Assembly (NCBI GenBank): GCA_963740785.1 | Contig: CAVUFO010000014.1 | Location: 156,605-220,604, forward strand | Reading direction: 5' to 3' | Source: an uncultured Actinomycetota bacterium | GTDB lineage: Bacteria; Actinomycetota; Actinomycetes; Streptosporangiales; Streptosporangiaceae | Length of the DNA stretch: 64,000 nucleotides | Shown here: positions 10,309 through 40,299 of the stretch, one piece after another | How positions within the stretch are numbered: the first letter of the stretch is position 1 | How the letters are laid out: every line of letters starts with the position of its first letter | Position numbers and translations under genes: made by a program | Notes under the pieces: model-generated | Database searches by the model: none | Told to the model about the DNA's origin: nothing | What the model saw: only the letters and a program-made list of their open reading frames with translations

Positions 10309-11271
10309 ATGGGGCCCGACCTGAGCCCGACGGCCAGGGCGCTGCTGGCGCTTGAGGCCATCCAGAACAACCCTGGCATCACGGCCGCCAAGCTCGGGGT
10401 CAGGCTCGGCGTCACCGAGCGGGCCGTTCGCCGCTACGTCGAGATCCTGCGCGAGGCCGATCTGCCAATCGAGTCGGTCAGCGGTCCCTACGGCGGCTAC
10501 CGGGTCGGCCGCGGCATCCGGCTGCCGCCGCTGATGTTCTCGGCCGCGGAGGCGATCGGACTGGTCATGGCCGTCCTGGAAGGTCACAGGAACGCGGCCG
10601 ACCCCGTCGATCCCGTCGGCAGCGCGCTCGCCAAGATCGCGCGGGTCTTGCCGGCCAGGCTGGCGAGCCCGGTCCTGGCCTTCAGGGACGTCAATGCCCC
10701 TCGTTCGGCCACCGAGGCCGCCGCCGTCAGCCCTGAGCTGGTGACGGCGCTGATCGAGTCCTGCGCGGCGGCTACTCAGCTGCGGCTGACGTACCGGCTC
10801 GGCATGCCTCACGGCGTGGCCATGGAGATCGACCCGTGGGCCGTCGTGCTCCGGCACAGCCGGTGGTACCTGCTCGGCTGGTCCCGCACCAGGCAGGCAC
10901 GCCGGATCCTTCGCGTCGACAGGATCGTGTCGATCGAGCAGGAACAGGAGACCTTCACGCCTCCTGCCGACCTCGACGCGCTGCGCATGCTCGAGGAGCA
11001 TCTTTCCCAGAGCTGGACCCATCAGGTCGAGGTCCTCGTCGAGGCCCCCGTCGAGAGGACATCGCGGTGGGTGCCCAGAAGCCTCGGCAGGCTGGAGCCC
11101 GCCGAGGGCGGGCATACTCGCATCACGGCAACGACGGACGACCCCGACTGGTACGCCAGGCAGCTCGCGGCCATCCCCGCGCCGTTTCACGTCGTCGGTT
11201 CACCGCCACTCCAGCAGGCCATAGACGCGCTAGGCCGCAAGCTGGTCGCGTCGGCGCAATCCCCCAGCTAA
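10309..11271 (+). CDS. YafY-family transcriptional regulator (HTH + WYL + WCX domains)
   Basis: N-terminal HTH (ITAAKLGVRLGVTERAVRRYVEILREADLPIES) and a WYL core (IDPWAVVLRHSRWYLLGWSRTRQARRILRVDRIVS). Confidence 0.85.
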   Translation: MGPDLSPTARALLALEAIQNNPGITAAKLGVRLGVTERAVRRYVEILREADLPIESVSGPYGGYRVGRGIRLPPLMFSAAEAIGLVMAVLEGHRNAADPVDPVGSALAKIARVLPARLASPVLAFRDVNAPRSATEAAAVSPELVTALIESCAAATQLRLTYRLGMPHGVAMEIDPWAVVLRHSRWYLLGWSRTRQARRILRVDRIVSIEQEQETFTPPADLDALRMLEEHLSQSWTHQVEVLVEAPVERTSRWVPRSLGRLEPAEGGHTRITATTDDPDWYARQLAAIPAPFHVVGSPPLQQAIDALGRKLVASAQSPS

Positions 11272-11285
11272 CCAAGGAGGTCCTG

Positions 11286-11654
11286 ATGAGTTCCGCGGCT
11301 ATGGTCCTGCCCGATCTCGAACGGGCGAGGCTCAGGGCGCTGGTCGGCGCGGACATCGCGGCAGCGGAGACGCTGCACGCCGAGGACTACCAGCTCGTCA
11401 CCCCGAACGGCTCGGACCTGACCAAGGACGACTACCTGGCCGCCATCGGGTCTGGGCGGCTCAGGTACCGCGTGTTCGAGGCCGCATCCGAGATCGCCGT
11501 GCTCGGCGACGGGCCCGTCGCGGTCCTGCGTTACCAGGCCAGGATCAGCTTCGACGACCGGCCAGGCCTGCTCTGCTGGCACACCGACTGCTACCGGCAG
11601 CGCGGCGGGCACTGGCAGGTGGTGTGGTCACAGGCCACCCGGATAATCGAATGA
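11286..11654 (+). CDS. DUF4440/NTF2-like small protein
   Basis: An AAGGAGG RBS lies 5 nt before ATG 11286. 122 aa with the pattern ...AEDYQLVTPNGSDLTKDDYLAAIGSGRLRY...HWQVVWSQATRI. The stop overlaps the next start (ATGA at 11651). Confidence 0.7.
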   Translation: MSSAAMVLPDLERARLRALVGADIAAAETLHAEDYQLVTPNGSDLTKDDYLAAIGSGRLRYRVFEAASEIAVLGDGPVAVLRYQARISFDDRPGLLCWHTDCYRQRGGHWQVVWSQATRIIE

Positions 11655-24717: not shown

Positions 24718-25761
24718 CTAGAACACCGAGATGTGCACGTGGTCGTAGTGGTTCGCGGTGATGCTGCCGCGATCGGGCATCGCCACCCAGCCCGCTGAGG
24801 CCATCCTGATGTCCCAGATGTGCTGCCGGTAGATGATGTACATGATCCCGAGCTCGGACGCGTTGGCCTGGGCCCAGTGCGCGATCGCGTATCCGAGCTG
24901 GACGTTGGCGGCCGTCGGCATGACGCCGCCGGAGCTGAGCATGAAATCGCATGCCCGGCCGAGCGGGTGCTCGCCGGTGGCCTCTGCCCGGTAGCAGCCG
25001 ATCGCGGAGAACGGGCCGAACCGCCGGTCGACAGCGTTCTTCACCGCCGCCATGCGGGGGGTGATGCTGCCGCCGATCACGGGCGACTGAGGGCGGAACT
25101 TGGCCAGCAGGCGCTTGACGGTCTGCCGCTGGCGCTCGAGCGCCGTGATCATCTTGCGCAGGTCGGCGACTTTGGTCCTGGCCGCCTTATCGGCGCTCTC
25201 GCTGGTGAGGATGAGGTGCTGCAGGGCACGCTGCCTGATGCTGCGCTGCCGCGCCAGGTACGTGATCAGGGCCGACCTGTCCATGATCCCGCGGGCATGG
25301 CCGCTGAACAGGGCGAGGAGCTGCTGGTCAGTCCCGCCGTTCAGGTAGCTGGCGACGGCCAGCCTGGACATCTGATGCCGGGAGATGCCGAGCTGATGGC
25401 GCACCATCCTGGCTCGTGACGCCGCCGCGTCCGCGTCGGCCCCGGCGCCGGCGAGCGTGTCGAGCTCGCCGCGGTACTGCTTGGCCAGCTTCGCCGCGCG
25501 TGCTTCAAGCCGCGCCAGCGTCAGGTGCCCGTCGCTGCCTGCCAGCGCCGCATCGGCGGCCAGGACCGCGCTGCGGGCGGACCGCGCCGCGGAACTCGCG
25601 GTCGCGGCGTCTCCGGCTGACGAGGCAACCAGGGCGCCGGCAAGCGCGGCGACGAGGGCGGCCGAGCGACCGTAGCTGCCGAGGCGAGAGCCACGCGCGG
25701 GCGCGGGCCCGCGCCGGAAAGCGATCCTGCGAGCCACGGGGATCAGGTCCGGACGGCGCAC
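24718..25761 (-). CDS. Secreted coiled-coil protein with a C-terminal cell-wall-hydrolase-like domain
   Basis: Signal-like N-terminus (SAALVAALAGALVASSAG) and a long heptad-rich middle. The C-terminal motif is GEHPLGRACDFM...LGYAIAHWAQANASELGIMYIIYRQHIWD...DRGSITANHYDHVHISVF, seen in actinomycete and phage lytic-type proteins. The GTG at 25761 was chosen (GGAGGAGG 7 nt upstream); the ORF track start is 25872. Confidence 0.65.
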   Translation of the reverse strand: MRRPDLIPVARRIAFRRGPAPARGSRLGSYGRSAALVAALAGALVASSAGDAATASSAARSARSAVLAADAALAGSDGHLTLARLEARAAKLAKQYRGELDTLAGAGADADAAASRARMVRHQLGISRHQMSRLAVASYLNGGTDQQLLALFSGHARGIMDRSALITYLARQRSIRQRALQHLILTSESADKAARTKVADLRKMITALERQRQTVKRLLAKFRPQSPVIGGSITPRMAAVKNAVDRRFGPFSAIGCYRAEATGEHPLGRACDFMLSSGGVMPTAANVQLGYAIAHWAQANASELGIMYIIYRQHIWDIRMASAGWVAMPDRGSITANHYDHVHISVF

Positions 25762-25981
25762 AGGGTCACCTCCTCCTGTCGTCCGCGGCGGGCTGGGCAC
25801 GCGCCGTCGTCCACGCCGGTAGGAGCGAACTGACGCCGACCATAGCAGCCAAAACAGCCGTCCGTGGCCCATCTGGCCTGATCGCAGGCGTGGTGCCCTG
25901 TGCCGCCGCCGCCGCCCGTTGGTGAACGTCGCCGGTGCGGCCGTGACGAGCCCGAACGGCTGGCCGCGAGGCGCGGGACGA

Positions 25982-26389
25982 CTACGCGGCGACGTGGCGC
26001 GCTGTCTTCAGACAGGAGCGAGGTCGGGTCGCGCCGGCGTTTATCTTCGCGTACATCCAGGGGCGGCCGGCCTGGACGGCGTACATCCACGGCCTGCCGG
26101 CGGGAACGGCGTACATCCACGGGCGCTTGAGCTTTGCCGCGTGCAACGGTGCCGCCTTGCGTGCCGCACAGAAACTGGCCGCGCTGGCCGACGTACCCGC
26201 TGGATGCTGCGGCCCGGCGACGTGCGCCGCGCCGGGCGATGCCGCTGCTGTAGCGCCGAAACTGACGAGGACGAGAGCTGGGACGGCGATGCTCCGCGCC
26301 AGTTGGGCGCGAGCCTGAGCGCGGCGAGCGCTGGCCGCCGATCCACCGGTTCGCGTGATTACATTCCGTAACGACCTGCGAGTCTGCAT
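25982..26389 (-). CDS. Small exported protein with three tandem RPWMYA decapeptide repeats (no recognised family)
   Basis: ATG 26389 is preceded by a GAGGAG RBS. Signal-like segment RRAQARAQLARSIAVPALVLVSFGATAAASPGAAHVA. Codon position 3 is richer in G+C than in the same-phase antisense ORF 25919..26371. The C-terminal half is KRPWMYAVPAG-RPWMYAVQAG-RPWMYAKINAG between two Cys. There is a TTA codon at position 7. Confidence 0.6.
   Translation of the reverse strand: MQTRRSLRNVITRTGGSAASARRAQARAQLARSIAVPALVLVSFGATAAASPGAAHVAGPQHPAGTSASAASFCAARKAAPLHAAKLKRPWMYAVPAGRPWMYAVQAGRPWMYAKINAGATRPRSCLKTARHVAA
26049..26138. repeat. 30-bp tandem repeat x3 (GCGTACATCCA core) inside the small exported protein gene
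   Basis: GCGTACATCCA occurs at 26049, 26079 and 26109, an exact 30-bp period. It encodes the RPWMYA repeats on the minus strand. Confidence 0.9.
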
Positions 26390-26527
26390 CGAGAAGGTCT
26401 CCTCTTTGGTGCCGAGATTGTCAGGCCCACCAGAACCGACAAGCTACCCGACCTGGCGGCTGCGGGAAGGGCGTTTGCACTGATTCACATGAGAGGTCCC
26501 GTCAATGCGGTTTACCTGCGATAACTT

Positions 26528-26542
26528 CGTGTGAATCACACG
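26528..26542. promoter_or_regulatory. 15-bp perfect palindrome CGTGTGA-A-TCACACG in the divergent SARP / small-protein intergenic region
   Basis: Read directly. A matching half site, TGATTCACA, lies at 26481..26489. Both are 90-150 bp upstream of the small gene's start. Confidence 0.4.
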
Positions 26543-26602
26543 TGCGCGAGCACCCGGGCGGCGCCCCGCCGTCCCGGTACATGACTGCCTGCCACGAATG
26601 AA

Positions 26603-26641
26603 TCCAACGGTCCTGATCGCCGAGGGGGCAGGACCGTTGGA
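26603..26641. other. Hairpin with a 13-bp perfect stem (TCCAACGGTCCTG / CAGGACCGTTGGA) and a 13-nt loop
   Basis: Read directly. It sits at the edge of the AT-rich part of the intergenic region. No U-tract follows, so its role (operator, RNA structure or terminator) is unclear. Confidence 0.6.
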
Positions 26642-26926
26642 CTCAGCGTCCTGGCCTCCTTCGAACGAATTGTATATACGGACAGTGACGAATATTCCGT
26701 TCGCAGGGCTGCGCCGACATCAGAATCAGCCGGCCTCCGCTAAGAATGTCGATGCAAGTTTCATTCAAGCTCGCAATGCGAGAATGCATTATTCCATCAT
26801 TTCTTGCCGTCCCATCAGAATTCATGTGAGATGGGGCTAGAGCGCGGGTATTAATGCGGCCAGAATGGTTGTGTAGGTCACATTCGGCGGCCTTGCCCGC
26901 AGAGGGTAGAAGAGCGCAAGACGATC

Positions 26927-30082: not shown

Positions 30083-30199
30083 CCCCGCCAGCGCGGGCCA
30101 CCGGTCACCGCCGATGCAAGGCAAGCATCAAGCCAGATGTAAGACAACCGTCCTGGTGTGCCGCAGACGATGAGGGCGCGGCTAACCCGGGAGGTCTTT

Positions 30200-31405
30200 G
30201 TGAGCCTGCTGCCTGACACGCGATCGTACGCCCCTGATCTCGCCCTCGACAGCCTGCTCGTCAGCGCCGAGCGGTTCGTCACCGAGTTCCACTGCGAGAA
30301 CCACGCCGGATCGCCTGACCGGCGGCTGCGCCAGGTCAGGCGGGAGGTCGGCGCGACGGGCACCTACCGGCACACCGCGGCGGAGCTCGAGTTCGGCGCG
30401 CGCGTCGCCTGGCGCAACAGCGCGCGATGCATCGGCCGGCTGTACTGGAAGAGCCTGCGCGTGCGTGACCGGCGCGAGGTCTCGGCCGCGCCAGACGTGG
30501 CGGCCGAGTCGGTCACGCACCTGCGCGAGGCGACGAACGGCGGGCGGATCAGGCCTGTCATCACGGTGTTCGCGCCGGACGCGCCAGGCAGGCCCGGCCC
30601 GCGGATCCTCAACTCGCAGCTCGTCAGGTACGCGGGCCACGCGCCCGCCGGCGGAGCGGCGATCACGGGCGACCCCGCGAGCGCTGATCTCACCAGGCTG
30701 GCGCGCGACCTCGGCTGGCAAGGTGGCAGCCCGCCCGGCCGGTTCGACGTGCTCCCGCTGATCGTCCAGGCGCCCGGCGCGTGTCCCACGCTGCACGAAC
30801 TGCCAGCGGACGCGGTGCTGGAGATCGCCATCGGGCACCCGGAGTTCGGCTGGTTCGCCGATCTCGGGCTGCGCTGGTACGCCGTGCCCGTGATCAGCGA
30901 CATGTACCTCGAGATCGGCGGGGTCTGCTATCCGGCAACGCCGTTCAACGGCTGGTACATGGGCACCGAGATCGGGTCACGGGACTTCGGCGATACCGGC
31001 CGCTACGATCAGCTGCCGGTCATCGCCACGCGCATGGGCCTGTCGACGGCCAGCGACCGGACGCTGTGGAAGGACAAGGCGCTGACCGAGCTCAACCTTG
31101 CCGTGCTGCACTCGTTCAGCGTCGCGGGCGTCACGATCGCCGACCACCACACCGAGTCCGTACGCTTCCTGCGGCACCTCGAGCGCGAGGAGCGGCAGGG
31201 CAGGGCGTGCCCGGCCGACTGGACGTGGATCGTGCCGCCAGCAGCGTCGTCGGCGACGCCGGTCTTCCATCGCTACTACCAGAACTTCGACCAGACGCCG
31301 AACTTCTACCGGCACATGCCGCCAGCCGGTCAGCCGGCCGTGTTAGCGGCGGGCCCGAGCAGCGGCGTGCCGCCAGGACGCATCAGGCCGGCCTTCATGA
31401 GCTAA
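30200..31405 (+). CDS. nos: Bacterial nitric-oxide synthase, oxygenase domain
   Basis: WRNSARCIGRLYWKSL (heme-thiolate Cys loop), RPVITVF, NGWYMGTEIGSRDF, ADHHTES and DWTWIVPP. The GTG at 30200 was chosen (GGGAGG 5 nt upstream); the ORF track start at 30158 is also possible. There is a TTA codon at 31342. Confidence 0.92.
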   Translation: MSLLPDTRSYAPDLALDSLLVSAERFVTEFHCENHAGSPDRRLRQVRREVGATGTYRHTAAELEFGARVAWRNSARCIGRLYWKSLRVRDRREVSAAPDVAAESVTHLREATNGGRIRPVITVFAPDAPGRPGPRILNSQLVRYAGHAPAGGAAITGDPASADLTRLARDLGWQGGSPPGRFDVLPLIVQAPGACPTLHELPADAVLEIAIGHPEFGWFADLGLRWYAVPVISDMYLEIGGVCYPATPFNGWYMGTEIGSRDFGDTGRYDQLPVIATRMGLSTASDRTLWKDKALTELNLAVLHSFSVAGVTIADHHTESVRFLRHLEREERQGRACPADWTWIVPPAASSATPVFHRYYQNFDQTPNFYRHMPPAGQPAVLAAGPSSGVPPGRIRPAFMS

Positions 31406-38603: not shown

Positions 38604-38635
38604 TTGACTCCGTACCTGAGTACGGCTGCTAGCTT
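38604..38635 (+). promoter_or_regulatory. MerR-type promoter candidate: TTGACT, a 20-nt spacer containing the palindrome CCGTAC-CTGA-GTACGG, then TAGCTT
   Basis: Read directly. The over-long 20-nt spacer with a dyad is the MerR-family hallmark. The -10 ends 6 nt before ATG 38642, implying a leaderless or near-leaderless merR-trxA transcript. Confidence 0.45.
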
Positions 38636-38641
38636 CACGGT

Positions 38642-39058
38642 ATGGCTGGTTTGACGATCGGGAAGTTCGCGGCCGAGGCGGGCGTCAGCGTCGAGACGGT
38701 GCGGTTCTACCAGCGCCGCGGCCTGCTGGCGCTGCCTGAGCGGCGCGGCTCGGGATTCCGCGAGTACACGGAGGCCGACCAGTGGCGGCTCGCCTTCATC
38801 CGCCGCGCACGCCAGCTCGGGTTCACCCTCGCCGAGATCCGCGACCTGCTCGGTCCTGCCGAGGCGCGGTCGACCGCCGACATCACCAGGGCCGCCGAAG
38901 CGAAGCTCGCGGCGATCGCCGGCCAGATCGCCGAGCTGGCCGCGCTGCAGTGCCGGTTGCGCAGGCTCGTCCGGGTCTGCGCGCACGGCAGCCGCGACGA
39001 CTGCGTGGCCCTGCACCTGCGTGACCCTGGCCACGCCTGCGCGCAGGCGGCGTGCTGA
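38642..39058 (+). CDS. MerR-family transcriptional regulator with a Cys-rich C-terminus
   Basis: LTIGKFAAEAGVSVETVRFYQRRGLL...FREYTEADQWRLAFIRRARQLGFTLAEI, and C-terminal cysteines (VCAHGSRDDCVALH...HACAQAAC). Confidence 0.88.
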   Translation: MAGLTIGKFAAEAGVSVETVRFYQRRGLLALPERRGSGFREYTEADQWRLAFIRRARQLGFTLAEIRDLLGPAEARSTADITRAAEAKLAAIAGQIAELAALQCRLRRLVRVCAHGSRDDCVALHLRDPGHACAQAAC

Positions 39059-39117
39059 ACCGGCCGGCCTGATCACTTCGAAAGGAACAACGTGATGAGC
39101 ATGTCGAGGAACGAGCG

Positions 39118-39447
39118 ATGAGCACCGCCAGGGCAGTGACCGACCACAGCTTCGACGCCGACGTGCTGGCGAGTCCCCGGCCGGTCATCGTCGAGTACTG
39201 GGCGCCGTGGTGCGGCCCGTGCCGGTTGGTCGGCCCGGTGCTCGACGAGATCGCCGCCGAGTACGCGGGCAACGTCGACGTGGTCAAGCTGAACACGGAC
39301 GAGAACCCGCAGTCGATGATCAAGTACGGGGTGCTGGCGGTCCCGACCATCAACCTGTTCTCCGGCGGCGAGGTCGTCAAGCAGGTCATCGGCGCCAAGT
39401 CCAAGTCCGCCCTGCTCCGCGAGTTCGCCGATCACCTCCCCGCCTGA
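39118..39447 (+). CDS. trxA: Thioredoxin
   Basis: 109 aa with VEYWAPWCGPCRLVGPVLDEIA and the YGVLAVPTINLF motif. Confidence 0.95.
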   Translation: MSTARAVTDHSFDADVLASPRPVIVEYWAPWCGPCRLVGPVLDEIAAEYAGNVDVVKLNTDENPQSMIKYGVLAVPTINLFSGGEVVKQVIGAKSKSALLREFADHLPA

Positions 39448-39464
39448 CCCTCCGCCCCTCGCGC

Positions 39465-39524
39465 GACCCCAGCTATGAACCCTTGGTGGGCCTATCGCGC
39501 CACTAAGGGTTCATAGCTGGGGTC
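39465..39524. repeat. Palindromic intergenic element, copy 1 (20-bp perfect stem, 20-nt loop), 17 nt after the trxA stop
   Basis: GACCCCAGCTATGAACCCTT-GGTGGGCCTATCGCGCCACT-AAGGGTTCATAGCTGGGGTC. It is near-identical to 61746..61799. Confidence 0.9.
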
Positions 39525-39546
39525 GAGATGGGGCTGGCGGGGGCTG

Positions 39547-40299
39547 GTGGGGCGCGGTTACGGTGCGGGGATGGGAGCTTCGCGGCCGGATTGGGTTGAT
39601 TTTCACTTCGATCTCATGTGCCCGTACGCGTATCAGACCTCGCTGTGGATACGCGAGGTTCGCGACAGGACCGGGCTGGAGATCAACTGGCGGTTCTTCA
39701 GCCTCGAAGAGATCAACAGGGCAGAAGGCAAGAAGCATCCGTGGGAGCGCGAGTGGTCTTACGGATGGTCGCTGATGCGGATCGGCGTGCTGCTCCGGCG
39801 GCAGGGGATGGCGCAGCTCGACGCCTGGTACGCCACCGCTGGCCGGGCGTTGCACGTCGACGGCGAGAAGCCGCACGTGCCGGACGTGGCCAGGCAGATC
39901 CTCGCGCGCATGGGTCAGGATCCCGGGCTCGTCGATGCCGCCATCGCCGATCCGACCACCGGCGACGAGGTGCTCGCCGAGCACCGCAGGGTCACGCGGG
40001 CCGGCGGGTTCGGCGTGCCGACCCTGTTCTTCCCTGACGGGCAGTGCCTGTTCGGGCCCGTTCTCATCGATCCGCCAGCGTGCGAGGCGGCCGAGCGGCT
40101 CTGGGACGCGGTCGTCGCGTGGACCGCGTTCCCGCACCTGTACGAGATCCAGCGGCCGAAGTCACGCTCGGACGCCGATGCGATCGCCGCCACGTTCCTG
40201 CCGTATCTTCAGGCCCGGGACTGGGTCAGCATCAACCGCGGCCAGGTCGTGGACTTCGCTCCGCCGGCAGCCGCGGAGACCGAAGGGAGCGCACCGTGA
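39547..40299 (+). CDS. DsbA-family thiol oxidoreductase-like protein (single-Cys CPYA motif)
   Basis: [22 protein letters not shown]... and [19 protein letters not shown], which fit a DsbA/HCCA-isomerase-like fold. Confidence 0.75.

Follow-up and report, generated by a model that had tools for sequence, protein, structure and literature searches.

What is made by a short open reading frame (ORF) that stands head-to-head with a large transcriptional activator, and to what is it linked? The question is raised by a gene of 135 codons on the minus strand of a 64,000-nt stretch of contig CAVUFO010000014.1 (the window), from an uncultured bacterium of the Streptosporangiaceae; its neighbour encodes a Streptomyces antibiotic regulatory protein (SARP) of the AfsR type. 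A preliminary description, based on the letters of the window, had proposed a multi-core or proteolytically released precursor, i.e. a leader followed by repeated Trp/Tyr-rich units, linked to the SARP and to a nitric-oxide synthase (NOS). The proposal is partly supported: the observation was largely right, with support for the precursor idea and for the SARP link, and the link to NOS and nitration is at best facultative. Our preferred interpretation, which we hold tentatively and put at roughly two chances in five, is that the gene specifies a SARP-coupled, TTA-gated, exported multi-copy pro-peptide that would yield PWMY-terminated peptides acting as a signal.

The 135-amino-acid translation, MQTRRSLRNVITRTGG...KRPWMYAVPAGRPWMYAVQAGRPWMYAKINAGATRPRSCLKTARHVAA, agrees with the preliminary description in several points: a good ribosome-binding site (RBS), the Shine-Dalgarno sequence AAGAGGAGA, is found 8 nt ahead of the ATG; the N-terminus is basic and then hydrophobic, a 32-residue n-region of net charge +8 preceding a 23-residue uncharged core; codon 7 is TTA; and the three RPWMYA units (KRPWMYAVPAG-RPWMYAVQAG-RPWMYAKINAG) are flanked by the only two Cys residues, C74 and C126. 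The underlying 30-bp DNA repeat had been called exact and is not, copies of the 30-nt period being 80% and 67% identical to the reference copy, with exact sharing limited to a core of about 11 nt (TGGATGTACGC). The G+C content of third codon positions (GC3) exceeds that of the antisense ORF as claimed (0.765 versus 0.695; within the gene, the repeat half has about 0.86 and the N-terminal half about 0.70), although it is far below the 0.87-0.91 of neighbouring genes, so that composition alone is a weak argument for coding. This low value would suit a spurious ORF, open by chance in GC-rich DNA or antisense to a real gene, as would the lack of a match to the window's own product in a collection of 15 billion proteins and the failure of gene callers to annotate four of the five peptide orthologues at loci reached from the SARP (see below). 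We take the latter two facts to mean that the PWMY family is systematically under-annotated. Between the closest pair of orthologues, a codon-aware alignment gave 16, 15 and 39 differences at codon positions 1, 2 and 3 and 32 synonymous versus 28 non-synonymous codon changes, and in the 47 loci found through the peptide, which amount to about 21 distinct lineages, the sense frame is the only one open from end to end in all 21, the other five each being interrupted in many. The position-3 excess and the sense-only open frame rule out a non-coding or antisense reading. Furthermore, the RBS and start codon are conserved among relatives, and inside the invariant PWMY the Pro codon (CCG/CCC/CCA) and the Tyr codon (TAC/TAT) vary synonymously. 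With 128 homologous clusters besides, a spurious ORF is scarcely credible, and on its substitution pattern the ORF is a genuine protein-coding gene.

A first search with the protein returned 16 homologues, and an exhaustive profile search extended the family to about 128 clusters at 50% identity, of which 61 reached E <= 1e-10; the metagenome scan used a tighter family alignment. In reference genomes a clade-specific pattern was found in 3 of 185,579 species, a count that, with such a pattern, is no more than a lower bound. The recurrence of motif and architecture in some 128 clusters is far more than chance would be expected to give. Profile searches of Pfam, NCBIfam and the PDB with the peptide were all empty and a literature search for the PWMY motif found nothing relevant, in keeping with the earlier remark that the motif comes from no described family; both the peptide family and its coupling to an AfsR-like regulator appear to be undescribed.

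The leader, about 60 residues in total, is strongly conserved. Its n-region spans 32-37 residues in the family, with a net charge of +4 to +10 and the consensus M-K-T-H-R-S-L-R-x-V-I-x-R-T-G-G-S..A-R-R, and judged by substitutions at the three codon positions (Table 1) it is under purifying selection at the protein level. A core of 17-26 uncharged residues follows (RGILV[PL]ALVLxSLGAxAAA), then small residues with Pro-Gly (ASPGHG). In the window the mean Kyte-Doolittle hydropathy of the core is 2.08 over 15 residues. Residues 33-55 are the most constrained segment (63/71/185 differences at positions 1/2/3), and in the family the flank downstream of the core is near-neutral. The spacer evolves almost neutrally, whereas the leader and PWMY are constrained. 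One variant, at locus L012, has lost the n-region and keeps only a short classical signal (MKTQATRG plus core); it is Cys-free and ends four residues past its last unit. A Tat signal was rejected, the twin-Arg before the core not being conserved (ARR/ARK/ARS/TRG), and so was a lipoprotein, there being no Cys near the end of the core. AlphaFold2 run with the family alignment gave a predicted local distance difference test (pLDDT) score of 45 and a predicted template modelling (pTM) score of 0.12; the protein is thus predicted to be disordered, and a folded repeat domain was discarded on that pLDDT.

Each member carries 1-7 units of the form [PAV]-W-[MLI]-[YF]. PWMY itself accounts for 233 instances, with PWMF, AWMY, PWLY, PWIY and VWIY as minor forms, and the aromatic-x-aromatic part, W-[MLI]-[YFW], is invariant. 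Units are most often spaced by 10 residues (range 5-33). There are 43 clusters with a single unit and 79 with several; exactly two Cys bracket the units in 51 of the 79. In 38 clusters of 75-97 residues, mostly Cys-free, the one unit is directly followed by a stop codon, be it TGA, TAA or TAG, verified inside contigs. Unit number differs even among near-identical strains (3, 5 or 6 in one group, 6 versus 7 elsewhere). Thus the proposed architecture of a leader with repeated short units finds strong support in the family, in the range of 1-7 units, the 38 clusters that end at PWMY and the neutral spacer, and repeat number does vary among homologues, a point that had been put forward for checking. 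What did not extend beyond the window is the basic residue ahead of each unit: the preceding residue is R in 76 cases, M in 69, G in 37, T in 30, L in 22 and K in 21, and release at basic residues is no family-wide feature. After the unit comes A (160), a stop codon (38), then G, T or S. The functional element is probably the unit ending in its aromatic residue, as one-unit proteins stop exactly there, and the small residue that follows in multi-unit proteins is what would be expected for cleavage by a chymotrypsin-like secreted protease. Units of the L008 type read NHMPWMY, which would resemble the D-N-H-M-P presumably contained in the repeats of Streptomyces coelicolor AfsS.

Which neighbour travels with this gene? 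When the neighbours at the peptide-anchored loci were clustered and checked by tblastn, a full-length SARP orthologue was found divergent from the peptide gene in 15 of the 21 lineages, the one-unit subfamily among them, at an intergenic distance of 460-920 nt. Seven different contexts lie downstream (Clp_N, ArsR-AHSA1, fasciclin, aromatic-amino-acid lyase with OCD, RNase-H-like, dodecin, coiled-coil protein). The SARP is absent beside the peptide gene in four lineages (L008, L012, L030, L045), and two more are ambiguous. Since these loci had been found via the peptide, a reverse test was run from the SARP with five orthologues on long contigs, picked blind: all five had, 520-690 nt upstream, a member of the peptide family with one unit, and it carried the same promoter block. 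The SARP linkage that the preliminary description had asked of homologues is therefore seen from both sides, and the SARP is the sole neighbour conserved across the peptide family. Across relatives the SARP is 69-93% identical and the peptide 38-72%.

The SARP of the window, taken at first for a pathway-type activator, does stand divergent as described; it is, at 1051 residues, of the AfsR type, and the 20 kb on each side hold no biosynthetic cluster. It scores 550 bits against the NCBIfam AfsR equivalog model, below the cut-off of 1430, and is thus an AfsR paralogue, not the orthologue. Residues 234-1032 match the HaaT model (E 2e-134, 450 bits, cut-off 1125) and the FxsT model (E 2e-23, 83 bits, cut-off 300), by which the protein is related to these families and a member of neither. 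Conservation among SARP orthologues is 0.83 in the DNA-binding/BTAD part, 0.80 in the TPR part and 0.75 in NB-ARC; the higher values of BTAD and TPR would agree with a DNA target and a ligand that are both conserved.

The gene after the SARP is a NOS, as had been stated. The predicted co-occurrence holds in part: a NOS is present in 9 of the 21 lineages and in three of the five reverse-test loci, and it is facultative, the 20-kb loci L004 and L011 having neither a NOS nor a cytochrome P450. Behind the SARP, a major facilitator superfamily (MFS) transporter and a P450 stand instead in L025 and L032-34, a PNPOx-like gene with a NOS in L014 and L018, and unrelated genes elsewhere; in L030 a P450 fragment adjoins the NOS. 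With the SARP constant and NOS or P450 changing, the core module is the SARP plus the peptide gene, and NOS or P450 is variable cargo.

Expression signals of the peptide gene are conserved as well. TTA is rare in the window (3 of 1535 Leu codons in 39 genes, 0.2%), several lineages have a second one at codon 45 of the peptide gene, and by its conservation (Table 1) TTA at codon 7 is under selection. In Streptomyces, TTA codons are under the control of bldA, an analogy that suggests translational gating here. Other rare codons are frozen too (ACT-3 in 17/20, AGG-5 in 13/20, GGA-16 in 16/20) while neighbouring synonymous sites vary (26341-26389 and orthologues), and two lineages without Leu-7 have GTA or ATA in its place, so that an element at the nucleotide level or in the translation-initiation region is possible. 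Codon 396 of the NOS gene, within the variable C-terminal tail, is also TTA; the NOS genes of L001, L007 and L018 likewise have a TTA in that tail, and that of L030 has one near the N-terminus; both divergent units may therefore depend on the same rare tRNA.

About 100 nt before the ATG are conserved family-wide (...CGGATCGATCCGAATGyCACATCCCGAGATGGAT..TGGTGTAGyTT..CTTGGAGGGCCTG..TATnCA..GAGGGGA), even at loci that lack the SARP; within them the block GTAG.TT..CG shows no change in 8/8 loci and is conserved in about 25. A scan of the intergenic region for the sigma-70 consensus gave no sites. Direct repeats of 11 or 22 bp were not detected in the conserved promoter, where self-similarity was 3.0 and 3.2 of 8 against a mean of 4.0 under column permutation, the pattern sought being the box of AfsR, which may not be that of this SARP. 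A riboswitch or structured 5' leader was rejected, Rfam giving chance-level matches only and RNAalifold four pairs without covariation. In the clade of the window, a further block, GTCACTGTCCGTA (26677-26689), is conserved upstream of the peptide gene, the SARP-less L008 included, and, like the elements GTGTGATTCACAC and GTTATCGCAGGTAAAC (Table 1), it is a likely operator of some regulator. Between the two genes, in an intergenic region of 537 bp, lies at 26600-26640 a perfect 12-13-bp inverted repeat, TCCAACGGTCCTG-N14-CAGGACCGTTGGA, of which only the right arm (GATCAGGACCGT) is conserved in relatives; its Rfam matches are at chance level. The upstream region of the SARP (26855-26926; 13 loci) has conserved blocks of its own, among them a plausible promoter roughly 90-120 nt ahead of the start (GTGAGA-N17-TATTAA), and its element TTGTGTAGGTCAC resembles the block TGGTGTAG of the peptide promoter; the SARP-proximal half of the intergenic region holds conserved blocks and no clear tandem repeats.

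Taken together, a disordered pro-peptide and a divergent AfsR-like SARP would form a two-gene module. We propose that the leader drives Sec-type export with the N-terminus inside, that outside the cell a disulfide between the two Cys encloses the units, and that extracellular proteases cut after the aromatic residue, ahead of Ala, Gly, Ser or Thr, giving several PWMY-COOH peptides. Expression of the peptide gene would be gated by the SARP and a bldA-type tRNA; the released peptide would diffuse as a signal, for which the TPR sensor of the SARP is the most plausible reader, and the SARP would also drive the variable operon behind it (NOS, or P450 and MFS). An exported pro-peptide fits the positive-inside n-region, the neutral pro-region and the short hydrophobic core with its small residues and Pro/Gly, as well as the paired Cys confined to multi-unit forms and the disorder. 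Several facts weigh on the other side. The canonical SARP box of two 11-bp direct repeats is not detectable in the conserved promoter, and the four lineages without an adjacent SARP keep both gene and promoter. A simple Sec signal would not typically have a conserved n-region of 32-37 residues, and conservation in this protein is highest in the leader, the opposite of ordinary secreted proteins. Motif statistics across the family gave no conserved N-terminal processing site before the unit, whose PWMY core is invariant, whereas RRNPP peptides and their receptors diversify together. Re-import and TPR binding would be steps that we infer outright, and the stronger version, in which PWMY-COOH is the encoded ligand of the TPR sensor of this NLR-type (STAND) SARP, exported, cut into copies and read back by the producers, is in our view doubtful.

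Other functions could be assigned to the same parts. The gene could encode the multi-core precursor of a peptide synthesised ribosomally and modified post-translationally (RiPP), its leader recognised by a cytoplasmic haem enzyme of the SARP operon and its modified units exported and excised; either the P450 would cross-link Trp and Tyr in W-M-Y, in the manner of cyptides and biarylitides, or NO derived from the NOS would nitrate these residues. W-M-Y has the Ar-x-Ar form of the P450 cyptide substrates YPW, YxY and YxH (PMC12288599, PMC11659900), and one-unit members carry the motif at the extreme C-terminus as biarylitides do. As in RiPPs, conservation is greater in the leader than in the remaining protein, although a strongly hydrophobic export-type segment within the leader would be unusual for them, and the NB-ARC-TPR part of the SARP resembles HaaT and FxsT of cyclophane RiPP systems. 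The P450 found after the SARP, with its MFS exporter, or as a fragment by the NOS, has PDB relatives that include CYP121 and Trp/Tyr-diketopiperazine couplers, but its similarity is no more specific than to macrolide P450s, and it occurs in just 2-3 of the 21 lineages. No P450 homologue exists in the 64-kb window, and within 20 kb on either side of the gene there is no P450, radical-SAM enzyme, non-ribosomal peptide synthetase (NRPS) or other biosynthetic cluster, nor a YcaO, a RiPP recognition element (RRE) or a dedicated peptidase; L004 and L011 lack NOS and P450 alike. Modification of peptides by NOS alone is not known, which likewise counts against a RiPP, and we consider this origin of the units unlikely. 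On the same grounds we rejected a nitration cluster like that of thaxtomin or rufomycin (TxtD/TxtE, RufN/RufO type), for the window has a NOS but no P450, NRPS or cluster.

Alternatively the protein might stay uncleaved in the membrane as an AfsS-like or anti-activator-like partner of the SARP, with a basic cytoplasmic tail of 35 residues bound to the TPR domain and extracellular PWMY units that sense or are regulated. A long, conserved n-region under purifying selection goes beyond the needs of export, the TPR domain is conserved, and the sole variant without the n-region (L012) also lacks the SARP; yet L008, L030 and L045 retain the n-region without an adjacent SARP. AfsS directly binds AfsR (PMC10832544), but it does so via its repeats, which here would be extracellular. 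The small-residue c-region after the core (ASPG-A/H-G) resembles a signal-peptidase site, and the strict PWMY end in 38 clusters points to a function of the free C-terminus, all of which makes a tethered partner quite improbable. No residues are oxidised or nitrated more readily than Trp, Met and Tyr, the three that also form the Met-Tyr-Trp adduct of KatG. Outside the cell, the units could accordingly be imagined to soak up or sense the reactive nitrogen and oxygen species that arise through the linked NOS, or to serve as a cofactor for them: the invariant residues are exactly W, M and Y, the NOS is linked in the proportions given above, and Hmp (L045, L048), MsrB (L012), MsrA (L048) and PNPOx-like genes (L014/L018) are nearby. 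The module nevertheless persists without a NOS in many lineages, the Hmp and Msr genes may go with the NOS rather than with the peptide, and neither the strict C-terminal ending nor the turnover of copy number is explained; a secreted redox peptide, which is also without precedent, is very unlikely.

The module invites comparison with AfsR and AfsS. AfsR directly activates the adjacent afsS, whose small, fast-evolving product has 2-5 repeats that bind AfsR (PMC10832544, PMC10936776); AfsS orthologues are recognised in practice by synteny and repeats, and which signals activate regulators of the AfsR type is unknown (bioRxiv 10.64898/2026.09.02.748808). The likeness is drawn from published descriptions of AfsS: a large AfsR-type regulator (BTAD, NB-ARC, TPR) beside a gene for fewer than 200 residues with tandem short repeats; a repeat number that varies by species (2-5 in AfsS, 1-7 in the PWMY family, though 43 clusters have a single unit); fast divergence of the small protein (17-38% identity for AfsS, against the PWMY values given above); and the lack of a fold or DNA-binding domain (PMC10832544; bioRxiv 10.64898/2026.09.02.748808). 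On the other hand, afsS lies downstream and co-directional, whereas the PWMY gene is divergent and 460-920 nt upstream at every locus. AfsS is cytoplasmic with polar, His-containing repeats (e.g. NTHITD), unlike a protein with an export-type leader and aromatic units; the 22-bp afs box, a pair of 11-bp direct repeats whose end is 8 bp from the -10, was not found at the PWMY promoter; and the regulator is a paralogue.

In Bacillota, TPR receptors adjoin pro-peptides exported by Sec, in which tandem duplication of the C-terminal unit is common and maturation is extracellular (PMC10075063, PMC11343458), while signals of Actinomycetota are typically small molecules, not peptides (PMC10075063). With these RRNPP(A) or Rap-Phr systems the module shares a small pro-peptide with a basic-then-hydrophobic N-terminus and a C-terminal active unit, intragenic tandem duplication of that unit, and a gene beside a cytoplasmic TPR-containing regulator (PMC10075063, PMC11343458). 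It differs in that the neighbour is a 1051-residue STAND/SARP protein instead of the 250-500-residue RRNPP fold of peptide-binding TPRs, the divergent genes are about 0.5-0.9 kb apart instead of -50 to 191 bp, the unit does not diversify with a receptor, and the n-region is unusually long. RRNPP pro-peptides have 10-100 residues with a Sec signal; one-unit PWMY members, at 75-97 residues, have that size with an atypically long n-region, and the window protein reaches 135 because of unit duplication. Failing the features of AfsS (orientation, topology, afs box) as well as those of RRNPP (receptor, spacing), the module is a member of neither family; it combines features of AfsR/AfsS and Rap/Phr and, by analogy, may work like them.

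More distant parallels concern the unit itself. Cyptides, biarylitides and cittilin likewise have an Ar-x-Ar motif at or near the C-terminus of a small precursor in actinomycetes (PMC12288599, PMC11659900), and a P450 is part of the PWMY module of L025, L032 and L030; the adjacent P450 that defines them is, however, in neither the window nor most lineages, and the PWMY precursor is 75-190 residues long with a hydrophobic export-type leader and up to seven units. Triceptides (HaaA/HaaB/HaaT) and the FxSxx-COOH systems (FxsA/B/C/T) also place an aromatic-motif peptide with a defined C-terminus beside a large NB-ARC/TPR protein, and W-M-Y fits the aromatic-X-X form of the triceptide motif (PMC11499958). 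The differences are that no radical-SAM/SPASM maturase is found among the annotated neighbours in the window or the fetched loci, that TPR matches fall under the cut-offs, and that the PWMY partner carries a SARP DNA-binding domain; triceptide identity was rejected for want of the radical SAM enzyme. Precursors of yeast alpha-factor and of the fungal ustiloxin type, in eukaryotes, have a signal peptide, a pro-region and tandem short Trp/Tyr units that are freed by proteolysis and flanked by Kex2 Lys-Arg sites. The PWMY protein would have the same arrangement, but the residue before its unit is not conserved.

Aside from the module, the neighbourhood in the window is ordinary chromosome, with a sugar ABC transporter, GH3, AXE1 and Usp on one flank and GNAT, permeases, AsnC, SDR, SpoIIE/PAS, MerR and thioredoxin on the other. 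The 384-residue protein downstream, noted before as coiled-coil and hydrolase-like, is there in the window and is a clade-specific neighbour only, of the close clade. Its C-terminal domain matches PDB 9flh, a "LysM domain-containing protein", with E 2e-15 and shows H-x6-D and H-x-H motifs by eye; the window copy has no Pfam match, and orthologues carry the precomputed label PF26571. Around the NOS, an Hmp-type flavohaemoglobin adjoins it in L045 (435-1661) and L048 (8868-10277), MsrB adjoins it in L012 (7593-8117), and a PNPOx-like flavoprotein lies between NOS and SARP in L014 (5127-5924), L018 and L021. MsrA is convergent directly after the peptide gene in L048 (2626-3207), and MerR, thioredoxin and a mycothiol-nitroreductase-like gene are 12 kb off in the window (38633-40299). 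As for proteases, a Peptidase_S9 (prolyl-oligopeptidase family), whose type would cleave after the Pro of PWMY, stands right after the NOS in L050 (8698-10734), a single occurrence. The closest relative, L001, has a convergent gene for a Peptidase_A4 (eqolisin-type acid protease) inserted immediately behind the peptide gene (10472-11353); this insertion is present neither in the window nor in L004.

Table 1. Positions in the window of the peptide gene, its parts and the neighbouring features.
Feature	Position	Strand	Basis or remark
Putative pro-peptide gene with PWMY repeats, 135 aa	25982..26389	minus	Translation, homologues, position-3 substitution excess, frame openness in 21 lineages
Start and stop codons of the 135-aa ORF	ATG 26389-26387; TAG 25984-25982	minus	135-aa ORF
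Conserved basic n-region, aa 1-32, MQTRRSLRNVITRTGG..., net charge +8	26294..26389	minus	Position 1/2/3 differences 71/67/128
Rare TTA Leu codon, codon 7	26369..26371	minus	Kept in 16/21 lineages
Hydrophobic core and small-residue c-region, aa 33-55, SIAVPALVLVSFGATAAASPGAA	26225..26293	minus	Signal-peptide or signal-anchor-like
Variable spacer ("pro-region"), aa 56-88, with Cys74 (26168-26170)	26126..26224	minus	Position 1/2/3 differences 168/163/185
Three 30-nt tandem units xPWMYAxxxG	26049..26138	minus	PWMY cores 26111-26122, 26081-26092, 26051-26062
C-terminal tail with second conserved Cys126 (26012-26014)	25985..26048	minus	Alignment
Conserved core promoter/5' region	26398..26449	minus	GGGTAGCTTGTCG 26437-26449; CAATCT -10-like hexamer 26415-26420; RBS AAGAGGAGA 26398-26406
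Clade-specific element GTTATCGCAGGTAAAC	26510-26525	minus	Conserved in 6/8 close loci including SARP-less L008
Clade-specific palindrome GTGTGATTCACAC	26529-26541	minus	Conserved in 6/8 close loci including SARP-less L008
AfsR-like large SARP (winged helix-turn-helix and BTAD, NB-ARC, TPR), 1051 aa	26927..30082	plus	Pfam; divergent from the peptide gene
NOS oxygenase domain	30158..31405	plus	Pfam E 1e-143; starts 75 nt past the SARP; facultative SARP-operon cargo
Downstream 384-aa protein, coiled-coil middle	24718-25872	minus	C-terminal domain similar to PDB 9flh

Actinomycetes have thousands of AfsR-like regulators, which control antibiotic production and development; the signals that activate them, and the majority of their targets, are unknown (bioRxiv 10.64898/2026.09.02.748808). 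Across many soil lineages of the Streptosporangiaceae type, one of these regulators is locked to a tiny, mostly unannotated gene. The product has the anatomy of a multi-copy exported signal peptide, which makes (x)PWMY a synthesisable candidate ligand or partner, and SARP and peptide together offer a simple two-gene system for studying how STAND/TPR SARPs switch. For most actinomycetes the physiological role of bacterial NO synthase is unclear, and here the enzyme is linked with a regulatory module that is defined. The catalogue of small proteins also grows by a family, some 128 clusters in size, that escapes gene callers. Were PWMY-COOH indeed the ligand of the SARP, this would be the first receptor-plus-pro-peptide quorum-sensing circuit in Actinomycetota and the first activating signal for an AfsR-like regulator, one that would switch on NO synthesis or a P450 pathway.

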